DNA of 64,000 bases from assembly GCA_015069045.1 (NCBI GenBank), contig SVJJ01000003.1, forward strand, positions 44,802 through 108,801. The letters are read 5' to 3'. The position numbers were made by a program, and so were the translations under genes. Positions within the stretch are counted from its first letter, which is position 1. Each line of letters opens with the position of its first letter. The notes under the pieces were generated by a model, which saw only the letters and a program-made list of their open reading frames with translations, did not search any database and was not told the origin of the DNA. This DNA is from Oscillospiraceae bacterium (GTDB taxonomy: Bacteria > Bacillota > Clostridia > UBA1381 > UBA9506). This document shows positions 3,455 through 46,996 of the stretch, piece by piece.

Positions 3455-5251
3455 ATGCTGTATCCACAACTAAACCAGGCTCGCGCCTTAATTGACCTAT
3501 CCGGAATATGGGATTTTTCTCTCTGCCCGGACACAGACGAACCTCACATACAAGAAGATGACTCATTGACCAATCCAGAAACCATTGCCGTACCCGCCTC
3601 CTATAATGACCAAAAAGTGGGCGAGGCCTTTCGGGACCACTATGGTTGGGTCCTGTATCGTTGTTACTTTTCCATTCCCAAGGTTCTGTCATCTCAACGG
3701 ATTATGCTCCGTTTCGGTGCCGTTACCCATAGTGCAAAAGTCTATTTAAACCATCAATTAATATGTCAACACAAGGGAGGATTTTTACCATTTGAGGTGG
3801 AAATATCAGAAAGTCTAAAACCGGATCAGAATGTGTTGATCGTCGCTGTAGATAATCGAATTGATTACACAACCCTCCCCGTTGGAAGTGAACAAGGCGG
3901 TAACATGCTAACCGGCCTTTTGCCTGACACACCCGGCGTTACAGTTAAAAAACAAAACTATCCAAACTTCGACTTTTTTAATTATAGTGGTATTACGCGT
4001 CCCGTTATCATATACACTACACCTAAACAATACATTCGGGATATTACCTTAAATCCTTCTGTAAAAGGAACCAGCGCACAGGTAGATTATGTTATTGAAA
4101 CCGAAGGGTGTACACAGCCTACCCTGACCATTCGTGACGAAGCCGGAACCACAGTTGCTACCGCTCAAGGCTCATCCGGCTGTTTCACTATAGAAAACGT
4201 GCATCTTTGGGAACCAATGCATGCCTATTTATACCAAGCTCAAGTTTGTTGCGGACAAGATGTTTACACCGAATCCTTTGGCGTTCGCACAGTAGAAATA
4301 CAAGGTAAATCTTTTTTAATTAACGGTAAACCCTTCTATTTTAAGGGTTTCGGCAAACATGAAGATACGCCCTTTCGGGGACGCGGCTTGGATAATGTAG
4401 CGAATGTAAAGGATATTAGTTTAATGGATTGGATTGGTGCGAATTCTTTCCGTACCAGTCACTATCCTTATTCTGAAGAGATGATGCTTTTATGCGATCG
4501 AGAGGGTATTGTGGTCATAGATGAAACACCTGCCGTTGGTGTAAATTTAAATTTTGGTGCCGCTGCCGGTACAACACCACAGGACACATACAAAATTTTA
4601 CGCACCAAAGAACACCACGAAGCCGTAATCCGGGATATGATTAATCGGGATAAAAACAGGGCCTGCGTAGTCATGTGGTCAATTGCCAATGAATCCGATA
4701 CCACCACATATCCGGATAGCGCCCTTGATTACTACAAGCCTTTATATGATTTAGCTCATCAACAAGACCCTCAAAATCGCCCCGTAACTATCGTGGGCGT
4801 GCAAAACGACTATACGAAAGATAAAACCCTGCCCATAACCGACGTAATTTGCTTAAACCGCTATTACGGCTGGTATGTATATGGCGGGGACTTAAAAGCT
4901 GCAGGTCAGGCCCTTGATTTAGAGTTGCAATATTGGGAAAAATTAGGAAAACCTCTCATGTTTACAGAATATGGTGCCGATACAATCGCCGGGCTTCACG
5001 ATGCTACACCTACCATGTTTACTGAAGAATATCAGGTGGATTTTTATAAAGCCATTCACGAAATAACAGACCGCTATGACTACTTTATCGGTGAGCATGT
5101 TTGGAATTTTGCAGATTTTGCAACCATTCAAGGCATTATGCGGGTTGATGGCAATAAAAAGGGAATTTTTACCCGGGATCGGCGACCCAAATTGGCAGCT
5201 CATTATTTTAAAAAACGCTGGCATAATATTCCCAATTTTAATTACAAATAA
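3455..5251 (+). CDS. uidA: Beta-glucuronidase (GH2)
   Basis: The protein aligns by eye with E. coli GUS throughout (LSGIWDFSL, LRFGAVTHSAKVYLN, SHYPYSEEM, WSIANESD, FTEYGADT). The ATG at 3455 has an SD-like GAAAGGA. Confidence 0.9.
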   Translation: MLYPQLNQARALIDLSGIWDFSLCPDTDEPHIQEDDSLTNPETIAVPASYNDQKVGEAFRDHYGWVLYRCYFSIPKVLSSQRIMLRFGAVTHSAKVYLNHQLICQHKGGFLPFEVEISESLKPDQNVLIVAVDNRIDYTTLPVGSEQGGNMLTGLLPDTPGVTVKKQNYPNFDFFNYSGITRPVIIYTTPKQYIRDITLNPSVKGTSAQVDYVIETEGCTQPTLTIRDEAGTTVATAQGSSGCFTIENVHLWEPMHAYLYQAQVCCGQDVYTESFGVRTVEIQGKSFLINGKPFYFKGFGKHEDTPFRGRGLDNVANVKDISLMDWIGANSFRTSHYPYSEEMMLLCDREGIVVIDETPAVGVNLNFGAAAGTTPQDTYKILRTKEHHEAVIRDMINRDKNRACVVMWSIANESDTTTYPDSALDYYKPLYDLAHQQDPQNRPVTIVGVQNDYTKDKTLPITDVICLNRYYGWYVYGGDLKAAGQALDLELQYWEKLGKPLMFTEYGADTIAGLHDATPTMFTEEYQVDFYKAIHEITDRYDYFIGEHVWNFADFATIQGIMRVDGNKKGIFTRDRRPKLAAHYFKKRWHNIPNFNYK

Positions 5252-14239: not shown

Positions 14240-14336
14240 CACACAAATAAATATCGGGGAGCCAATAGGCTGAGAGGAAACTTTGTTTCGACCCGCAACC
14301 TGATTTGGGTAATGCCAACGTAGGGAATATTTCATG
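14240..14336 (+). promoter_or_regulatory. TPP (THI-box) riboswitch aptamer
   Basis: CGGGGAGCC...GGCUGAGAGG...ACCCGCAACCUGAUUUGGGUAAUGCCAACGUAGGGAA matches the conserved THI-box cores (CUGAGA, ACCUGAU, UAAUGCC, GUAGGGAA). It lies directly upstream of thiT. Confidence 0.9.
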
Positions 14337-14346
14337 ATTGCTTTGC

Positions 14347-42534: not shown

Positions 42535-42544
42535 AAATATCCGT

Positions 42545-42570
42545 AAAATTAGTGCACAATTTAGATGCCA
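42545..42570. repeat. Direct repeat copy R1 (TAAAATTAGTGCACAATTTAGATGCC)
   Basis: 25/26 identical to 46971-46996. Its core is related (15/19) to the ACTGTATAATCTGGATGCC core of the leader modules. It overlaps the stop codon of the four-helix-bundle gene. Confidence 0.8.
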
Positions 42571-42920
42571 CTATTATCTTGATTTTTCTTTGCGGTTGTA
42601 ATTGATGATATTAGCTTTCTGCGGATTGTTCCACACTTGTTGTTCAAATTATCATATGTCATCTTATCTATTGCATTTACTTTAAACAAAATTTCTAACC
42701 AATATTCTGTTTCGAAACACTCTTTGAGGGCAATTTCAAGTTTATGTATAAAATCCGCCCTGCTCTGTGCATGCTTTGCTTCATGTGAATTTGCACCTAT
42801 TGACGAGCAAGACCTCAAAAGTTGGTTTGTAAATACCGCTCTCCCCTTTATGTTATCACATGTTGCTGTTGTTTCAACGGTCAATTCAACTGCCAATTCC
42901 TTAATAGTCTTATCGTTCAT
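42561..42920 (-). CDS. Four-helix-bundle protein (23S rRNA intervening-sequence protein / Avd-like family)
   Basis: About 119 aa. LLRSCSSIGANSHEA....SRADFIHKLEIALKECFETEYWLEIL is the family signature. Confidence 0.8.
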   Translation of the reverse strand: MNDKTIKELAVELTVETTATCDNIKGRAVFTNQLLRSCSSIGANSHEAKHAQSRADFIHKLEIALKECFETEYWLEILFKVNAIDKMTYDNLNNKCGTIRRKLISSITTAKKNQDNSGI

Positions 42921-42935
42921 AGTAACCTCTTTCCA

Positions 42936-43116
42936 GCGATATACTCACTTCGTTCGTGCGATATATTTTCACTATGTTCAAATGCGATATAACCTCATTT
43001 CATTCGGTTGCGATATGATATAAATTCCTTTTCTCGTCCCGAAGGGACATATCGCACCTTTAGGTATATCGCTTCCGCAAGGATATATCGCAAATTCCGT
43101 CAGGAATTTATATCGC
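42936..43116. repeat. Convergent 4+4 array of the heptamer GCGATAT / ATATCGC with hairpin spacers
   Basis: GCGATAT occurs at 42936, 42958, 42984 and 43010. ATATCGC occurs at 43049, 43066, 43085 and 43110. The right-half spacers are hairpins, for example 43036-43048, 43092-43109 (7 bp) and 43117-43139 (10 bp). Confidence 0.85.
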
Positions 43117-43142
43117 TGATTTCATCTTCGATGAAATCATTA

Positions 43143-43169
43143 TATAAAGACTGTATAATCTAGATGCCA
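43143..43169. repeat. Leader-module copy D (core only)
   Basis: TATAAAGACTGTATAATCTAGATGCCA differs at one position from the 27-mer at 43740-43766 and 44139-44165. In this copy the Spo0A-box part is replaced by the GCGATAT array. Confidence 0.85.
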
Positions 43170-43210
43170 ATGTTTTTCATTTGTAATCACATCAAGTCAG
43201 AGCTAAAAAA

Positions 43211-43702
43211 TTATCTATCTTTCAGATAACTCTTTATTTCTTCAGAAGAAACTTTTACAAAATTATTTTTTAATTCTTCATTAGCAAAATGTATTTCTAA
43301 AAATTCTATATCCCTTATTTCTTCACCATTTCGATAAACTGTTATGGCTCCATTGCCGGTTGTACCTCTCCCAGCCGGATATGTACGAACATATAAAAAT
43401 TCCTTGTTAAACTGCAAATCCCTTCCGTCTGGACACCACAAATATGTTTGTTTCTCACTATATATACCGTTACAAATAACAATTGTATATTCGTTTCCAT
43501 CATTAAATGCAATATCTATCAATGGATAATCCAATTGCCCAATTGCTTCATCAATAGGAGTATCATCAAGTATCTCAATTTCTTTTTCTAATTTAAATTC
43601 GTATTCTCTTTTTGCATTCTCAAATCCCGTATGATAAAAAATACCACTCGCGACAACAGTACAAAACACACATAAAACTATTAGGATTATAATTTTTTTC
43701 AT
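43211..43702 (-). CDS. Hypothetical signal-anchored / secreted protein (163 aa)
   Basis: N-terminal hydrophobic segment MKKIIILIVLCVFCTVVASG. AGGAAG RBS. Very AT-rich. No family recognised. Confidence 0.6.
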   Translation of the reverse strand: MKKIIILIVLCVFCTVVASGIFYHTGFENAKREYEFKLEKEIEILDDTPIDEAIGQLDYPLIDIAFNDGNEYTIVICNGIYSEKQTYLWCPDGRDLQFNKEFLYVRTYPAGRGTTGNGAITVYRNGEEIRDIEFLEIHFANEELKNNFVKVSSEEIKSYLKDR

Positions 43703-43709
43703 TTAAGCA

Positions 43710-43768
43710 CTTCCTTTCGACAGCATTCGACAATCTTTATATAAAGACTGTATAATCTGGATGCCAAT
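43710..43768. promoter_or_regulatory. Leader-module copy A: RBS, tandem Spo0A boxes, palindrome, promoter-like core
   Basis: The minus strand reads TTGGCA-N18-TATATA, then TGTCGAAtgcTGTCGAA (43716-43732), then AGGAAG. The plus strand reads TCGACA-N18-TATAAT (43727-43756). The palindrome TCTTTATATAAAGA lies at 43734-43747. Confidence 0.6.
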
Positions 43769-43812
43769 CTTATTAGCATCAGGTTAGTGTCAAGTTAGAA
43801 CAAAAATTGTCA

Positions 43813-44100
43813 TCAATATTTCATAACAAAATTTTCATAAAACTCGTACTCTTCGTCGTCAGTTAAGTCACTGTCAATAAACTCTTGTAATTCCTCTTTC
43901 ATTTTTTCATATACCTCATTACAATCATCAGGACCACAAAACGCAGTATGAACCATTGCCCCATAAACTCCACAAGTGATTGCATAATATTTAGGACATT
44001 TTTCCAGAGTTATTCTACAAGATTCCATATACTCTTCATCCTTAATAACAATGCCATTCTCACTTCCGATTGCGACATTCACATATAAATCTTTCCACAT
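43813..44100 (-). CDS. Hypothetical small acidic cytoplasmic protein (95 aa)
   Basis: GGAAGGAG RBS. Acidic C-terminus (DSDLTDDEEYEFYENF). The look is immunity-protein-like, but no family was recognised. Confidence 0.55.
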   Translation of the reverse strand: MWKDLYVNVAIGSENGIVIKDEEYMESCRITLEKCPKYYAITCGVYGAMVHTAFCGPDDCNEVYEKMKEELQEFIDSDLTDDEEYEFYENFVMKY

Positions 44101-44110
44101 TGTAGTTTAC

Positions 44111-44166
44111 TCCTTCCGACAAAATTCGACATCCTTACTATAAAGACTGTATAATCTGGATGCCAT
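44111..44166. promoter_or_regulatory. Leader-module copy B
   Basis: The minus strand reads TGTCGAAtttTGTCGGA (44115-44131) next to the RBS. The 27-mer at 44139-44165 is identical to copy A, and identity to copy A is 37/41 from box 2 outwards. Confidence 0.6.
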
Positions 44167-44222
44167 TGTTTTTTATTGGCGTTAATATTAAGTATGGACT
44201 AAAAAAACAATTAGTTAGTTAG

Positions 44223-44759
44223 TTACTTACTTTCTTTTTTAAGTTTCACAAATTCAATAATTTGTATGATAAATAATACTATATGTGCTGTTCCTGCAAT
44301 TCCTGATACTATCCAAGCCACATCTGTAAAAACCTCATTACGAACTAAATTAAACAAACCATATGTAGGGCCTATATCACCACCATCTGGCAACAAAACC
44401 CAGAAAATCAAATATGTAGCAATAAAAAGATAATTTGTTATCCTTAATCCCGGAGAATCAACAAATAATTTTGATGCATATAAATTTGTCAACAAAAACA
44501 ATATTGGATGTATAATAGGTATTAACATAATTATCATACAAAACCTAATCCAGCCTATATTAAGCACCAACGATAGAGTAGCAATAACAATGCAAATTAC
44601 AGATAGAAGTAATGGTTTGTTTTTTGTTAGATTATTCTTTTTAAATAATTTAATTAATTTTGCAATTCCCCAGATAATAAGTCCAATAATTGCTATAATT
44701 TGTGCTATTCCAAAAATCGTAGAAAAAATATAATAACCCGTTTTTAATATATTCGTCAT
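44223..44759 (-). CDS. Hypothetical polytopic membrane protein (178 aa, about 5 TM)
   Basis: Alternating hydrophobic stretches and an AAAGGAG RBS. About 20% G+C by hand count of one 60-nt line. Confidence 0.55.
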   Translation of the reverse strand: MTNILKTGYYIFSTIFGIAQIIAIIGLIIWGIAKLIKLFKKNNLTKNKPLLLSVICIVIATLSLVLNIGWIRFCMIIMLIPIIHPILFLLTNLYASKLFVDSPGLRITNYLFIATYLIFWVLLPDGGDIGPTYGLFNLVRNEVFTDVAWIVSGIAGTAHIVLFIIQIIEFVKLKKESK

Positions 44760-44771
44760 ACTCTATCTCCT

Positions 44772-44788
44772 TTCGCCAAATTTCGACA
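44772..44788 (-). promoter_or_regulatory. Leader-module copy C (Spo0A-box pair only)
   Basis: The minus strand reads TGTCGAAattTGGCGAAAGGAG with a 10-nt period. The GATGCC core is absent from this copy. Confidence 0.5.
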
Positions 44789-44833
44789 ATCTTACTATGA
44801 TTTTGTCAAGTTAGGGACAAAAAAATTTATTCT

Positions 44834-45043
44834 TTATACAGCAACTTGTCTTGCTTCAATATACAAATCTATATCGTTGATAATATAGTTTGTTCCGGTG
44901 GTATGCAATGCACCATAACATTCCATAATATATTCACACACATTATATTTTTGAAACAACTGTATAACTTCTTTTCCTTTTAGATTTTTTGCAGTCCTAT
45001 ATATCTCAATGCAAAAAATCAAAAATCTTCCCTCTTTGCTCAT
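44834..45043 (-). CDS. DUF3791-like small protein
   Basis: FLIFCIEIYR...GKEVIQLF.KY.V.EYI..CYGALHTTG..YI..DIDLYI matches my memory of DUF3791 proteins. Confidence 0.6.
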   Translation of the reverse strand: MSKEGRFLIFCIEIYRTAKNLKGKEVIQLFQKYNVCEYIMECYGALHTTGTNYIINDIDLYIEARQVAV

Positions 45044-45076
45044 AATATCCCTACTTTAGTTATCTCTATGATTATT

Positions 45077-45946
45077 CTAGATATTTTCAATTTCACTTTC
45101 TTCAATATCTTTCAATGTAATTCCGTCTTTATTTCTCCACTCTGTTCTACCGTTCGCATTTCTTCCCATGACAATAGCCGCAGCTAAAGATGGGCTGGTA
45201 AAAACATAATCTTTCACAAAAGTTTCACTCACAACTGTACCACTTTCAATTAACTTGTTTCTAAGTTTAATTAGGTATTCTGACATACTAGGCGTAGTAG
45301 ACATCGCAATTTTAGAATTTCTCAATACTGCAAAGCCATCAGATGTAACAAATCCTAATGCTTCTGCACCACGAGCTGCTTTAATATGAAAAATTTCTTT
45401 TTCATCATTTAATCCATCTTCTGCATTTGCTGTAAGAACATCAAAAGATTTATAACCCAATGTATTAACTAACAACCTTGCATTTTCAATAAACTCGTCA
45501 AGCATAGCAACATCGTATTCAGAAATAGAGGGACAGGTTGGTATTGTACTATTTATAACATCTGTTCTATTTGCATCTTTTGCCAATTGATAAAATTTAT
45601 TTTCAAGGAATTTCACATGAGCTTTGTTCAATAAATTGTCTTTACTGATTACTGCAATACAATCATTCCAATACTCTTTATCTTTTAAATGTTGCTTTAA
45701 TCGTGTAACAATTCTTTCTGCCTCACCAATATAAATCGTGTCATTTCCATCCGTGCTCTTACCAAATAAGAAATACACGCCGGTATTATCTGCATCCTCT
45801 CTCTGTGCAAATTCAGAAATATCACTACGAGAAATTTTATATACTCTGCCATTCCAATTTGAAAGTTCACACATAATTCTTCCATTTGGATTTCCCTCAA
45901 ATATGTACATCTGAATTGTTTTATCAAAATTTTTCATATAACTCAT
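45077..45946 (-). CDS. GIY-YIG nuclease-domain protein with a DUF4357-like C-terminus
   Basis: GVYFLFG-N12-IYIGEAERIVTRLKQH (nt 45713-45781). C-terminus FTSPSLAAAIVMGRNANGRTEWRNKDGITL. The ATG overlaps the upstream stop (ATGA at 45943-45946). Confidence 0.7.
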   Translation of the reverse strand: MSYMKNFDKTIQMYIFEGNPNGRIMCELSNWNGRVYKISRSDISEFAQREDADNTGVYFLFGKSTDGNDTIYIGEAERIVTRLKQHLKDKEYWNDCIAVISKDNLLNKAHVKFLENKFYQLAKDANRTDVINSTIPTCPSISEYDVAMLDEFIENARLLVNTLGYKSFDVLTANAEDGLNDEKEIFHIKAARGAEALGFVTSDGFAVLRNSKIAMSTTPSMSEYLIKLRNKLIESGTVVSETFVKDYVFTSPSLAAAIVMGRNANGRTEWRNKDGITLKDIEESEIENI

Positions 45947-46869
45947 TCCCCTTTATGATTCTTTTCGCTTACAGAAAGCACAAAATCCGCCATAGTCATC
46001 GCACTATTAACAAACAAGCGAGCATGATGCTCTGCTATGTTAATTCTTTTTGTACCAACACCATGAGAATCGCTACCTTTATTGCGCATTTCAGAAATTG
46101 CTGTTAGAATCTTTTCTAACCCAGAAAGCAATCCGTTTATTCTCTTGTCGATATCTTTGTTTTGGTGCATATTATATAGTGTTTTTACTTGGTTATATAA
46201 CTTTCCGACATCTCCGCTCTCGGATGGTTGTTCCCCTTTTTTCTCTATTACATAACAAAAAACCTCTTCAAGTAGTGTTCTAGATTTAGTTATTGCGCTA
46301 TCAAAAAAACCATCAGTTACATCCTTCATAGCACGATCCGACAATCCTACTATGTATGATCTATCTATTTTTTTAACGGATGGTGCAACAATTTTTACCG
46401 TCTCTCCTTTTTTATCTATAACAAAACGGCCATCAACAATTACAAGTTCAAAACCACTAAAATACAACACTCCATTTATTTGATCAATTATTGTTGAAAT
46501 AATTCTTTTGTGGGCATAATCAATATCTTTTGGAGTGCATCCTCTAAGTTTATTTGCAAACTGTTCTTTAGAAAACAAAAACGACAACAAGTCAGAAACT
46601 CTATTATTATCAATACAAAACTTCAGCAAATTATCAAGATATTCCCAACGGCTTTTTGCCCCACCACTCCACTTGTAAGCAACCGGCAGTCCAAAATTCG
46701 TTGATATTTCGCATAAATCCGGTCCATTTAAGTATGGAAGAGAAATCTTAATAATATCGTCAATGGATTCAACTTTAAACTCACCGAAATCGGTATCGCC
46801 ATCCAAAATCGCTATTATTGTTTTTGTTCTTAACAACCCAAAATTGTTATCAATTGTTTTCATTATCAA
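45943..46869 (-). CDS. AbiJ-like protein with a C-terminal Abi_C/HEPN domain
   Basis: C-terminal ...ISEMRNKGSDSHGVG...AEHHARLFVNSA contains an Rx6H motif (R262-H269, nt 46063-46086). The N-terminal SLPYLNGPDLCEISTNFG...WSGGAKSRWEYL resembles AbiJ N-terminal domains. Confidence 0.65.
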   Translation of the reverse strand: MIMKTIDNNFGLLRTKTIIAILDGDTDFGEFKVESIDDIIKISLPYLNGPDLCEISTNFGLPVAYKWSGGAKSRWEYLDNLLKFCIDNNRVSDLLSFLFSKEQFANKLRGCTPKDIDYAHKRIISTIIDQINGVLYFSGFELVIVDGRFVIDKKGETVKIVAPSVKKIDRSYIVGLSDRAMKDVTDGFFDSAITKSRTLLEEVFCYVIEKKGEQPSESGDVGKLYNQVKTLYNMHQNKDIDKRINGLLSGLEKILTAISEMRNKGSDSHGVGTKRINIAEHHARLFVNSAMTMADFVLSVSEKNHKGE

Positions 46870-46970
46870 TCCTTCTTTTTGTTTTTCAATATTATTTCAC
46901 ATCAAAATATTTATGATTATCTCAAAGGAGCTCCATGCGTTTTAATTTTTGTCCCTTGTATATCAAACTT

Positions 46971-46996
46971 TAAAATCAGTGCACAATTTAGATGCC
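46971..46996. repeat. Direct repeat copy R5 (TAAAATCAGTGCACAATTTAGATGCC)
   Basis: 25/26 identical to 42545-42570, about 4.4 kb away in the same orientation. Confidence 0.8.

Follow-up and report, generated by a model that had tools for sequence, protein, structure and literature searches.

Conserved Heptamer-Repeat RNA Element Upstream of a PF05635 Gene and Its Relation to the Gut-1 Motif

Heptamer array and structured RNA element in the window

Why are eight copies of one 7-nt sequence packed between small hairpins directly in front of a gene for a small four-helix-bundle protein? This question was raised by a 64,000-nt stretch of DNA (64 kb; hereafter, the window) from an Oscillospiraceae bacterium (GenBank assembly GCA_015069045.1, contig SVJJ01000003.1, positions 44,802 to 108,801 of the forward strand), in which the heptamer GCGATAT forms an array upstream of an open reading frame (ORF) of PF05635/TIGR02436, the family of 23S rRNA intervening-sequence (IVS) proteins and Avd. 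Segment 42936–43139, taken on the minus strand, represents one copy of a structured and conserved RNA of approximately 205 nt. This is very probably a Gut-1-type structured RNA linked to PF05635, and on balance we favor the view that its segmented heptamer-repeat helix would be the cognate RNA of a pentameric PF05635 protein.

The heptamer occurs on the plus strand at 42936, 42958, 42984, and 43010 and on the minus strand at 43049, 43066, 43085, and 43110, in agreement with an initial reading made from the letters alone (hereafter, the sequence-only reading), which had also correctly placed the symmetry center of the innermost pair at 43032.5. Along the plus strand, the spacings are 22/26/26, then 39, and then 17/19/25. 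The excess noted in that reading was reproduced; 8 copies were counted in 181 bp against approximately 0.02 expected, which rules out a chance origin of the array, and the whole window holds 14 copies on both strands against 7.1 expected. Neither a scan of every 7-mer nor Tandem Repeats Finder detected a further array of this type in the 64 kb, and no Rfam family reached its gathering threshold at the array locus. All five hairpins listed beforehand are present (43036–43048, 43056–43065, 43073–43084, 43092–43109, and 43117–43139), and the three spacers of the remaining half (42943–42957, 42965–42983, and 42991–43009), which had been overlooked, form hairpins as well, every one of them with tandem G·A/A·G. 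Perfect long-range complementarity over 13 nt between 43017–43029 and 43102–43114 had likewise escaped notice. The adjacent promoter-like module (copy D, 43142–43169) is real and has two more copies, and the predicted four-helix-bundle gene downstream of the array was identified as the PF05635/TIGR02436 ORF 42561–42920(−).

Read in the sense of the gene, the element runs in the order P0, L1, P1, L2, P2, L3, P3, L4, P4, linker, R0, and then R1, P5, R2, P6, R3, P7, R4, ribosome-binding site (RBS), ATG, where P0 to P7 are hairpins, L1 to L4 the 5′ heptamers, and R1 to R4 the 3′ heptamers. Its parts are given below; where no other evidence is named, the assignment is from the sequence.

43139–43144, minus strand: −10-like box TATAAT at the end of promoter-like module D (43142–43169), with TTGGCA 20 nt upstream
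43117–43139, minus strand: P0, a 10-bp hairpin adjoining the first heptamer; its sequence differs among loci
43110–43116, minus strand: L1, 5′ heptamer GCGAUAU; covaries with R0 in relatives
43092–43109, minus strand: P1, hairpin AAAUUCC-UGAC-GGAAUUU; 99% paired versus 70% in permuted controls
43085–43091, minus strand: L2, heptamer GCGAUAU
43073–43084, minus strand: P2, hairpin; pairing counts in relatives and RNAalifold
43066–43072, minus strand: L3, heptamer GCGAUAU
43056–43065, minus strand: P3, hairpin; pairing counts in relatives
43049–43055, minus strand: L4, heptamer GCGAUAU
43029–43048, minus strand: P4, hairpin GUCCC-UUC-GGGAC (43036–43048), with the linker GAGAAAA (43029–43035); end of the Rfam Gut-1 model coverage
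43017–43028, minus strand: R0, GGAAUUUAUAUC, a partial fifth repeat (AUAUC) plus a further complement to the P1 5′ arm
43010–43016, minus strand: R1, 3′ heptamer AUAUCGC
42991–43009, minus strand: P5, hairpin with tandem G·A/A·G (AACC-GA-AU-GAA-AU-GA-GGUU); pairing counts in relatives
42984–42990, minus strand: R2, heptamer AUAUCGC
42965–42983, minus strand: P6, hairpin with tandem G·A; pairing counts in relatives and RNAalifold
42958–42964, minus strand: R3, heptamer AUAUCGC
42943–42957, minus strand: P7, hairpin with tandem G·A; pairing counts in relatives
42936–42942, minus strand: R4, heptamer AUAUCGC
42921–42935, minus strand: RBS AAAGAGG (42926–42932) and the spacer to ATG
42561–42920, minus strand: PF05635/TIGR02436 four-helix-bundle gene, 119 aa, of the 23S rRNA IVS protein/Avd family (E 1.1e-22 and 6.5e-26)

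The closest solved structure to the 119-residue protein is PDB 2RLD from Bacteroides, which contains five chains (E 1.6e-23), so that the fold of the protein is fixed. The family is very large, each homology search returning thousands of clusters; no PADLOC match was obtained for the protein, and a relationship of PF05635 to HEPN was unsubstantiated in the literature searched. A metagenome scan with the 119-residue sequence gave 80 loci. Every homologue examined (50–86% identity) was preceded directly by a 4 + 4 element with a differing heptamer; a crude detector located the element at 70 of the 79 homologue loci, and four more were seen by eye. The heptamer types are as follows (5′/3′; three-digit L numbers denote loci).

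L241 (86% identity): GCGAUAU / AUAUCGC
L242 and L243: UCGAUAU / AUAUCGA
L244: GUGAAAU / AUUUCAC
L245: GUGAAGU / ACUUCAC
L246–L320: GUGAUAU / AUAUCAC
L247: AUGAAAU / AUUUCAU
L325 and L326, viral contigs: GUGAAAU
L328, viral contig: GUGAAGC / CCUUCAC

Six of the seven types have consensus pairs that are complementary at 7/7 positions, and GUGAAGC/CCUUCAC pairs at 6/7. Nested complementarity of the 5′ and 3′ heptamers was 0.95 within an element versus 0.75 across heptamer types. All eight heptamers change in concert among the relatives while the hairpins between them drift freely, which argues for a common reader of the heptamers rather than for pairing alone. The main types all have G3, A4, and U7, and only GUGAAGC departs from this, at position 7. 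The hairpins themselves vary in sequence from locus to locus, yet they close exactly at the heptamer borders. The unit of element and gene was encountered in a defense island, as in the window, and elsewhere following tRNA genes, a rumA-like gene, or ABC transporter genes.

Recurrence, strandedness, and the relation to Gut-1

The occurrence of such arrays elsewhere, which had been proposed in the sequence-only reading as a check, was examined by scanning 185,579 species genomes (one genome per species) for the pattern GCGATAT-N(8–30)-GCGATAT-N(8–30)-GCGATAT. This gave at least 120 stretches. Many of the matches listed came from metagenome-assembled genomes of Clostridia, Oscillospiraceae, Ruminococcaceae, and Acutalibacteraceae of the rumen or gut, and many of those listed show a plus array followed by a minus array. 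When the motif was clustered, the ++++−−−− pattern recurred with the asymmetric spacing of the window. An nhmmer profile retrieved 26 full-length elements (window included) at ≥85 bits, along with numerous copies of the 5′ half only, and at least 26 Clostridia genomes from rumen and gut have the element at conserved spacing. In RNA sense, the spacings in the full-length set are about 25/19/17, then 39, and then 26/26/22, as illustrated by the window (25, 19, 17, 39, 26, 26, 22 on the minus strand), L008 (25, 18, 18, 39, 24, 26, 23), and L120 (25, 20, 17, 36, 24, 26, 25). One copy lies on an IMG/VR viral contig (L144). Elements with the 5′ half only, which is the Gut-1 architecture, were found before ORFs or terminators at L109, L099, L077, L113, and L071.

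Several structural variants were also observed. An insertion of ~170 nt separates P4 from R0 at L078 (1128–1614), and the elements at L325 (1057–1471) and L027 (1–250) are duplicated in tandem. On the viral contig L144 (~4310–4560), the element is bordered by an 18-nt direct repeat, CCCGGCTAAGCGAGCCGC, whose left copy is the P0 5′ arm, as if the P0 3′ arm had been copied from the insertion target.

Covariation of the hairpins was evaluated on 29 parsed elements. For the six spacer hairpins, the three pairs that close each stem were formed in 92–99% of the cells, while controls with permuted 3′ arms gave 50–70% and reached the observed value in 0 of 500 permutations; 3–5 pair types occur per closing position. 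RNAalifold, applied to a MAFFT alignment of 24 elements, predicted 27 pairs, 19 of which change on both sides. The L3–L4 region of this alignment was partly misaligned, so that the heptamer-anchored counts were relied on instead. The non-canonical stem positions comprise 55 G·A/A·G, 12 G·U, 1 A·C, and 6 C/U-type cases. Since G·U and G·A pairs become mismatches on the opposite strand, the structure can be read on the gene (minus) strand only. As judged from these comparative counts, the element is a strand-specific structured RNA in the sense of the gene. Compared with shuffled sequences, folding is much more stable for both strands of the locus (z-scores of −4.35 and −5.57). An enrichment of UNCG/GNRA loops was considered as further RNA evidence and dropped, as most loops are 3-nt UNC with a C-G closing pair and have no diagnostic value. 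The array is conserved, its spacing is kept, and its hairpins covary, which is the opposite of what the sequence-only reading had named as grounds for abandoning it.

That reading assigned the array to no known element class, which does not hold: the array is a sub-threshold relative and the full-length form of Gut-1 (RF01706). The Rfam model of Gut-1 matched 43024–43118(−) with 29.0 bits (E 0.0011 in a 501-nt search), below the gathering cut-off of 50. The window has the Gut-1 layout, i.e., a hairpin in front and heptamers alternating with covarying hairpins, and it shares the genomic partner of Gut-1, with a PF05635 gene directly downstream. It differs in one more hairpin than the model has, in the sub-threshold score, and in the heptamer, where GCGAUAU has C at position 2 of the Gut-1 consensus GUGAWAU; this C is compensated by a G in all of the 3′ heptamers. 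Bona fide Gut-1 matches of 52–73 bits were obtained for L244, L245, L246, L325, L326, and L120b, and the Gut-1 5′ halves of the first five lie directly upstream of PF05635 genes. When the seeds of the published alignment were viewed with their flanks, several showed four hairpin-separated AUAUCAC copies downstream, plus an R0-like segment, and some had no 3′ half. The Rfam model thus covers only the 5′ half of the 4 + 4 architecture. The habitat of both forms is of the gut Clostridia type. The nhmmer profile built from GCGAUAU-type elements did not reach GUGAUAU-type Gut-1 at E < 0.01, and the relation suggested here rests on the architecture, the weak covariance-model match, and the homologous downstream gene.

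Gut-1 was described as a small RNA (sRNA) candidate from human-gut metagenomes only, and its function was not discussed (Weinberg et al. 2010, PMC2864571). It is listed in Rfam as an sRNA of unknown function, and no later paper on it was found in the searchable literature, nor was its 3′ half or a tie to PF05635 mentioned there. The locus L120 has a GCGAUAU element (2346–2553, plus) convergent with a bona fide Gut-1 (~2715–2915, minus; 57 bits, GUGAUAU/AUAUCAC) at a distance of ~160 nt, with a terminator between both elements. Because L120 holds two heptamer types, one genome can have two "specificities".

Proposed protein partner and competing explanations

More distant PF05635 genes of Bacteroides, Clostridia, Chloroflexota, Proteobacteria, and phage contigs are also accompanied by 7-nt-periodic arrays, which have no interleaved hairpins. 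These plain arrays consist of 4–9 tandem, lineage-specific units, and most loci have a complementary set, usually with the ORF in between. The following arrays were recorded.

Bacteroides (2RLD type): (ATTGACA)4 upstream and (ATTGTCA)4 downstream of the ORF
L073, a typical NIAEG-type member: five AGATGCC-like units before the ORF and five GGCATCT-like units after it
L330, viral contig: (ATTGACA)n - ORF - (TTGTCAA)n
L331, viral contig: (GAGTTAG)n - ORF - (CCTAACT)5
L332/L333, viral contigs: GATTTTT / AAAAATC
L329, viral contig: plain heptamer-periodic stem of ~35 bp upstream
L337, Anaerolineae: 8–9 units on each side
L336, Chryseobacterium: AGGT- and ACCT-phased arrays
L334, Geoalkalibacter (CP010311), and L335, Methylomarinum (CP157743): long GGGGCGA-type arrays

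The Bacteroides cassettes are inserted between araD-like and araA genes or between aminotransferase and DAHP synthase genes. A possible 10-nt target-site duplication, CAATAAATTA, was seen at the outer borders of the cassette in L322 (1437–1500 and 1880–1930; araD-araA), and none was seen at L323, L330, L331, or L073. The PF05635 genes of L334 and L335 are embedded in BREX (PglY-like) and restriction-modification (methyltransferase/AAA) operons. Compared with the window, these cassettes share the protein family and differ in that their units are contiguous and the ORF mostly lies between the two sets. A paper that generalizes the pattern of PF05635 and heptamer arrays was not found in the searchable literature.

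Two systems with members of the family were compared. The PF05635 proteins form toroidal pentamers (Lin et al. 2006, as cited in PMC3936711 and PMC4990558). Intervening sequences of 23S rRNA that contain an S23p/PF05635 ORF occur in Leptospira and Coxiella. The 23S IVS of Coxiella has 3–4 tandem GACAGAT copies just before its S23p (PF05635) ORF, in a copy number that varies among strains, and is cut by RNase III at the first repeat (PMC4990558). The protein family, the heptamers directly before the ORF, a stem formed from terminal complements, and a selfish insertion into transcribed DNA are likenesses to the element in the window. The latter differs in lying outside an rRNA gene, in having both repeat sets 5′ of the ORF, and in its hairpin-interleaved repeats; an IVS-type stem enclosing the ORF is absent from the window and present in L322, L323, L073, L330, and L331. 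No rRNA match was found in the window, where the only Rfam match at the gathering threshold was a thiamine pyrophosphate (TPP) riboswitch. The second system is Avd of the diversity-generating retroelements (DGRs), a homologous pentameric four-helix-bundle ring, for which cryo-electron microscopy shows five protomers that all contact one RNA stem-loop with identical residues (preprint 10.1101/2023.10.23.563531). The Avd RNA is a single 11-bp stem-loop and not a repeat array; a Pfam scan of the eight neighboring ORFs gave no reverse transcriptase near the element of the window, and a repeat search gave no pair resembling template and variable repeats.

These comparisons are consistent with the following mechanism. 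The 5′ and 3′ heptamers would pair to give four identical 7-bp helices, which can stack, since every hairpin closes at a heptamer border. The product would be a helix of ~28 bp that is broken by perfect four-way junctions, a hairpin-studded counterpart to the uninterrupted heptamer-repeat stem seen in IVS-like relatives. The 7-nt unit would then be the recognition unit of a pentameric PF05635 ring, one per protomer or crevice. For binding by a ring protein, the evidence is homology to the pentameric PF05635 proteins and to Avd, and a reading of the heptamers by the pentamer is, in our estimate, a serious but tentative possibility. The ribonucleoprotein may control the processing and/or translation of the PF05635 mRNA, either as autoregulation or by an RNase III-type excision as in the IVS, or it may serve to insulate a selfish cassette; this purpose is the least certain part of the mechanism. 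As R4 adjoins the RBS and no terminator-like site was found between the array and the PF05635 ORF, autoregulation of PF05635 translation or processing could apply.

The predicted folding energy was −64.5 kcal/mol with the 5′ and 3′ heptamers paired, −30.7 kcal/mol with the heptamers forced to be unpaired, and −52.5 kcal/mol when an alternative helix, P_alt, was enforced. P_alt can form from L1 (nucleotides 3–7) and the P1 5′ arm, which are complementary to R0 over 13 nt (100%) in the window. Among relatives, 27 of 29 elements keep this complementarity at 10–12 of 12 positions, and compensatory changes occur. As P1, P_alt, and the L1:R4 rung exclude one another, two states of the RNA are probable, and the covariation behind P_alt suggests that it can switch between two folds.

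The transcription signals around the element fit a reading on the gene strand. A TGnTAnAAT box lies directly upstream (0–1 nt before P0) in the window and in L004, L045, L057, L072, L099, and L241, with a −35-like TTGATA or TTGATT 17 nt upstream of the −10 box in L045 and L241, and intrinsic terminators follow directly downstream in the same orientation at L093, L097, L113, and L120. A sigma-70 reading of the module on the plus strand (TCGACA-18-TATAAT) was rejected, as it points away from the genes, and was treated as incidental to the palindrome in the module. The element and the PF05635 gene often come directly after a tRNA gene and an intrinsic terminator (L244, L245, L246–L320, L326, L328, and L329); in these tRNA-linked relatives, the upstream tRNA terminator takes the place of P0, and in L244 and L246 the element is separated from the PF05635 gene by a promoter-like sequence. 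P0 could be a 5′ hairpin of the RNA, a DNA feature, or an upstream terminator.

Several of these observations weigh against a protein-read ladder of four helices. Since the −10 box adjoins P0 in the window and six relatives, a normal start, ~7 nt past the box, would fall inside the P0 5′ arm. In L244–L246, L326, and L328, the element is placed behind an intrinsic terminator and ahead of the apparent PF05635 promoter, and as the tRNA terminator is P0 there, transcription of the element in tRNA-linked loci would need read-through. L1 covaries with R0 and not with R4 in L244, L245, L325, and L087, which indicates that the four-rung ladder is not conserved and competes with P_alt. The partner assignment of the 5′ and 3′ heptamers is ambiguous because the copies are identical, the existence of 5′-half-only elements means that heptamer pairing is not obligatory, and four repeats have no exact match in a pentamer. 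The gene is directly downstream in only ~6 of the 26 full GCGAUAU elements, the arrays of L334 and L335 are upstream only, with no complementary set downstream, and the association of heptamer type with protein lineage is inseparable from simple co-inheritance. What the loci display is the RNA and its linkage to the gene; protein binding, purpose, and all function are what we infer from it.

An alternative is that the heptamers work single-stranded in the manner of TRAP or CsrB, so that each GCGAUAU between hairpins would bind a subunit of an oligomeric RNA-binding protein. The protein might be PF05635 or another one, and the 3′ half would be an optional antisense decoy or switch that masks the sites. 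This would account for the 5′-half-only elements and the Gut-1 seeds without a 3′ half, and for the conservation of G3, A4, and U7 (GUGAAGC excepted at position 7), which simple pairing does not demand; the 5′ half also folds first during transcription, with its heptamers free. We nevertheless regard it as unlikely, given a 3′ half that is present, complementary, and changing in concert in all PF05635-linked elements, a heptamer pairing worth ~34 kcal/mol in silico, and the plain complementary arrays of the IVS-like relatives, which must form a duplex. The sequence-only reading had proposed an RNA leader that is bound by a multimeric protein in the way of TRAP or HutP. Of this, the strand-specific element adjoining the RBS of a pentamer-family gene stood; the reiterated motif is present, but no terminator/antiterminator of the TRAP/HutP type lies between the array and the ORF. 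The leader appears to be the best fit among the possibilities raised there, with protein binding as its putative part. The TRAP-trp leader and CsrB/RsmZ are analogies only, in which a short motif is reiterated for a ring-shaped or oligomeric protein. Another is the kissing of ColE1 RNA I and RNA II with Rop, where 7-nt complementary segments between helices are read by a four-helix-bundle protein; in the window, the complementary copies are in the same molecule. PF05635 has no homology to TRAP, CsrA, or Rop, and the motif of the window lies between hairpins and not in loops. A type III toxin-antitoxin RNA array was rejected, as those are direct repeats of ~36 nt beside a toxin gene and their architecture differs, and so was an integron attC/cassette recombination site, as it is the promoter-like modules and not the array that are repeated between cassettes.

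It is equally conceivable, and to our mind no less improbable, that the arrays have no specific protein partner and make up only the stem of a selfish insertion of the IVS type, which RNase III would process or which would insulate the PF05635 cassette from host transcripts; their 7-nt periodicity and within-element identity would have arisen by slippage or gene conversion. The strain-variable heptamer copy number of the Coxiella IVS and its RNase III cut at the first repeat (PMC4990558) speak for this, together with the Bacteroides and other PF05635 genes that sit within operons between inverted arrays, and with the many elements that are ORF-less, like most rRNA intervening sequences. Slippage, however, does not account for identical heptamers that are non-adjacent and separated by diverging hairpins, and the conserved G3-A4 core is left unexplained. 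Four-way junctions every 7 bp are, moreover, poor RNase III substrates. Much less probable is an array acting as double-stranded DNA, whether as iterons, an operator, centromere-like or transposon-end sites, or ends of a miniature inverted-repeat transposable element, for a DNA-binding protein. Identical short sites in convergent arrays upstream of a small gene fit this picture, as do the clearly mobile unit, the arrays of distant relatives that flank the gene like terminal inverted repeats, the 18-nt flanking direct repeat of L144, and the tRNA-linked element between terminator and promoter. The spacer hairpins covary, though, and the strand asymmetry of G·U and G·A pairs is meaningless for duplex DNA; these findings disfavor the iteron, centromere, or operator that had been the other possibility in the sequence-only reading. 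Moreover, the eight neighboring ORFs gave no recombinase, Rep, or Par gene, and there was no consistent target-site duplication at L323, L330, L331, or L073. The GCGATAT units might finally be decoy or real −10 elements of the sigma-D/FliA type, with TAAA 15 nt upstream of L2. The sigma-D/FliA (sigma-28) −10 consensus is GCCGATAT, whose core is fitted by CGATAT, and TAAA-N15-GCGATAT occurs once, from L1/P1 to L2. We find this hardly credible, as the spacing is off by one, a TAAA partner accompanies only 1 of the 8 copies, and the sister heptamers GUGAAAU, GUGAAGU, and AUGAAAU are unlike the consensus; the sigma-54 and sigma-D readings of module and heptamer were rejected on the same grounds of misfitting consensus or spacing and differing sister heptamers.

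With respect to what was known, the Gut-1 motif itself is not new, and it was unexplained; the complementary 3′ half with its concerted heptamer change, the link to PF05635, and the family-wide heptamer arrays appear to be new. Gut-1, an orphan RNA motif since 2010, now has a candidate protein partner. The founding members of PF05635, the ORFs of the 23S IVS, have had no known function since 1993, and Avd, the DGR accessory protein, is the sole characterized member of PF05635/TIGR02436. A broader reading, which we offer as speculative and somewhat unlikely, is that PF05635 proteins and 7-nt arrays form an unrecognized phylum-spanning class of RNA-protein elements, in which each protomer would read one heptamer and the heptamer would be a lineage-specific address co-evolving with the protein. 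It would unite Gut-1, the ORF-bearing rRNA IVS, the Bacteroides cassettes, and possibly the cyanobacterial short tandemly repeated repetitive (STRR) sequences, and its role might be excision, insulation, or mobilization of the cassette at the RNA level. The STRR heptanucleotide repeats, together with their presence inside helix P12 of RNase P RNA, may reflect the phenomenon seen in the PF05635-linked arrays; a paper that links the two was not found. Taken together, the results converge on one question, namely whether the pentamer binds its cognate heptamers and whether a heptamer swap changes the specificity. If the heptamer is a readable address, this would be a small, naturally modular RNA-protein recognition code. 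A rule is also gained for annotating intergenic elements in Clostridia of the gut and rumen, hundreds of which lack an annotation.

Surroundings of the window locus

The element and its gene lie in a low-GC (29–34%) island, 42544–46996, bounded by a 26-nt direct repeat (42544–42569 and 46971–46996; 96% identical). The island further contains genes for AbiJ (45943–46869), PDC-S14 GIY-YIG/DUF4357 (45077–45946), and PDC-M13/DUF3791 (44834–45043), and looks like a defense island that was inserted upstream of an ACT/metallo-beta-lactamase gene. The TPP riboswitch at 14245–14343 on the plus strand (73.7 bits) is unrelated to the array.

The promoter-like module is ~68 nt long and occurs at 43143–43210, 43740–43807, and 44139–44206; the shorter segments 42544–42569 and 46971–46996 belong to the same set of modules. 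Each small cassette ORF is preceded by the ~68-nt module and then by an RBS module (TGTCGAAnnnTGTCGAAAGGAG), and the RBS module alone precedes a 178-aa ORF and a glycerate kinase gene. The sequence GGCATCT or GGCATCC in these modules reads, in reverse complement, as AGATGCC, the heptamer that flanks a different PF05635 gene in L073. Another heptamer-type cassette could have left the modules behind as scars or could use them as targets.

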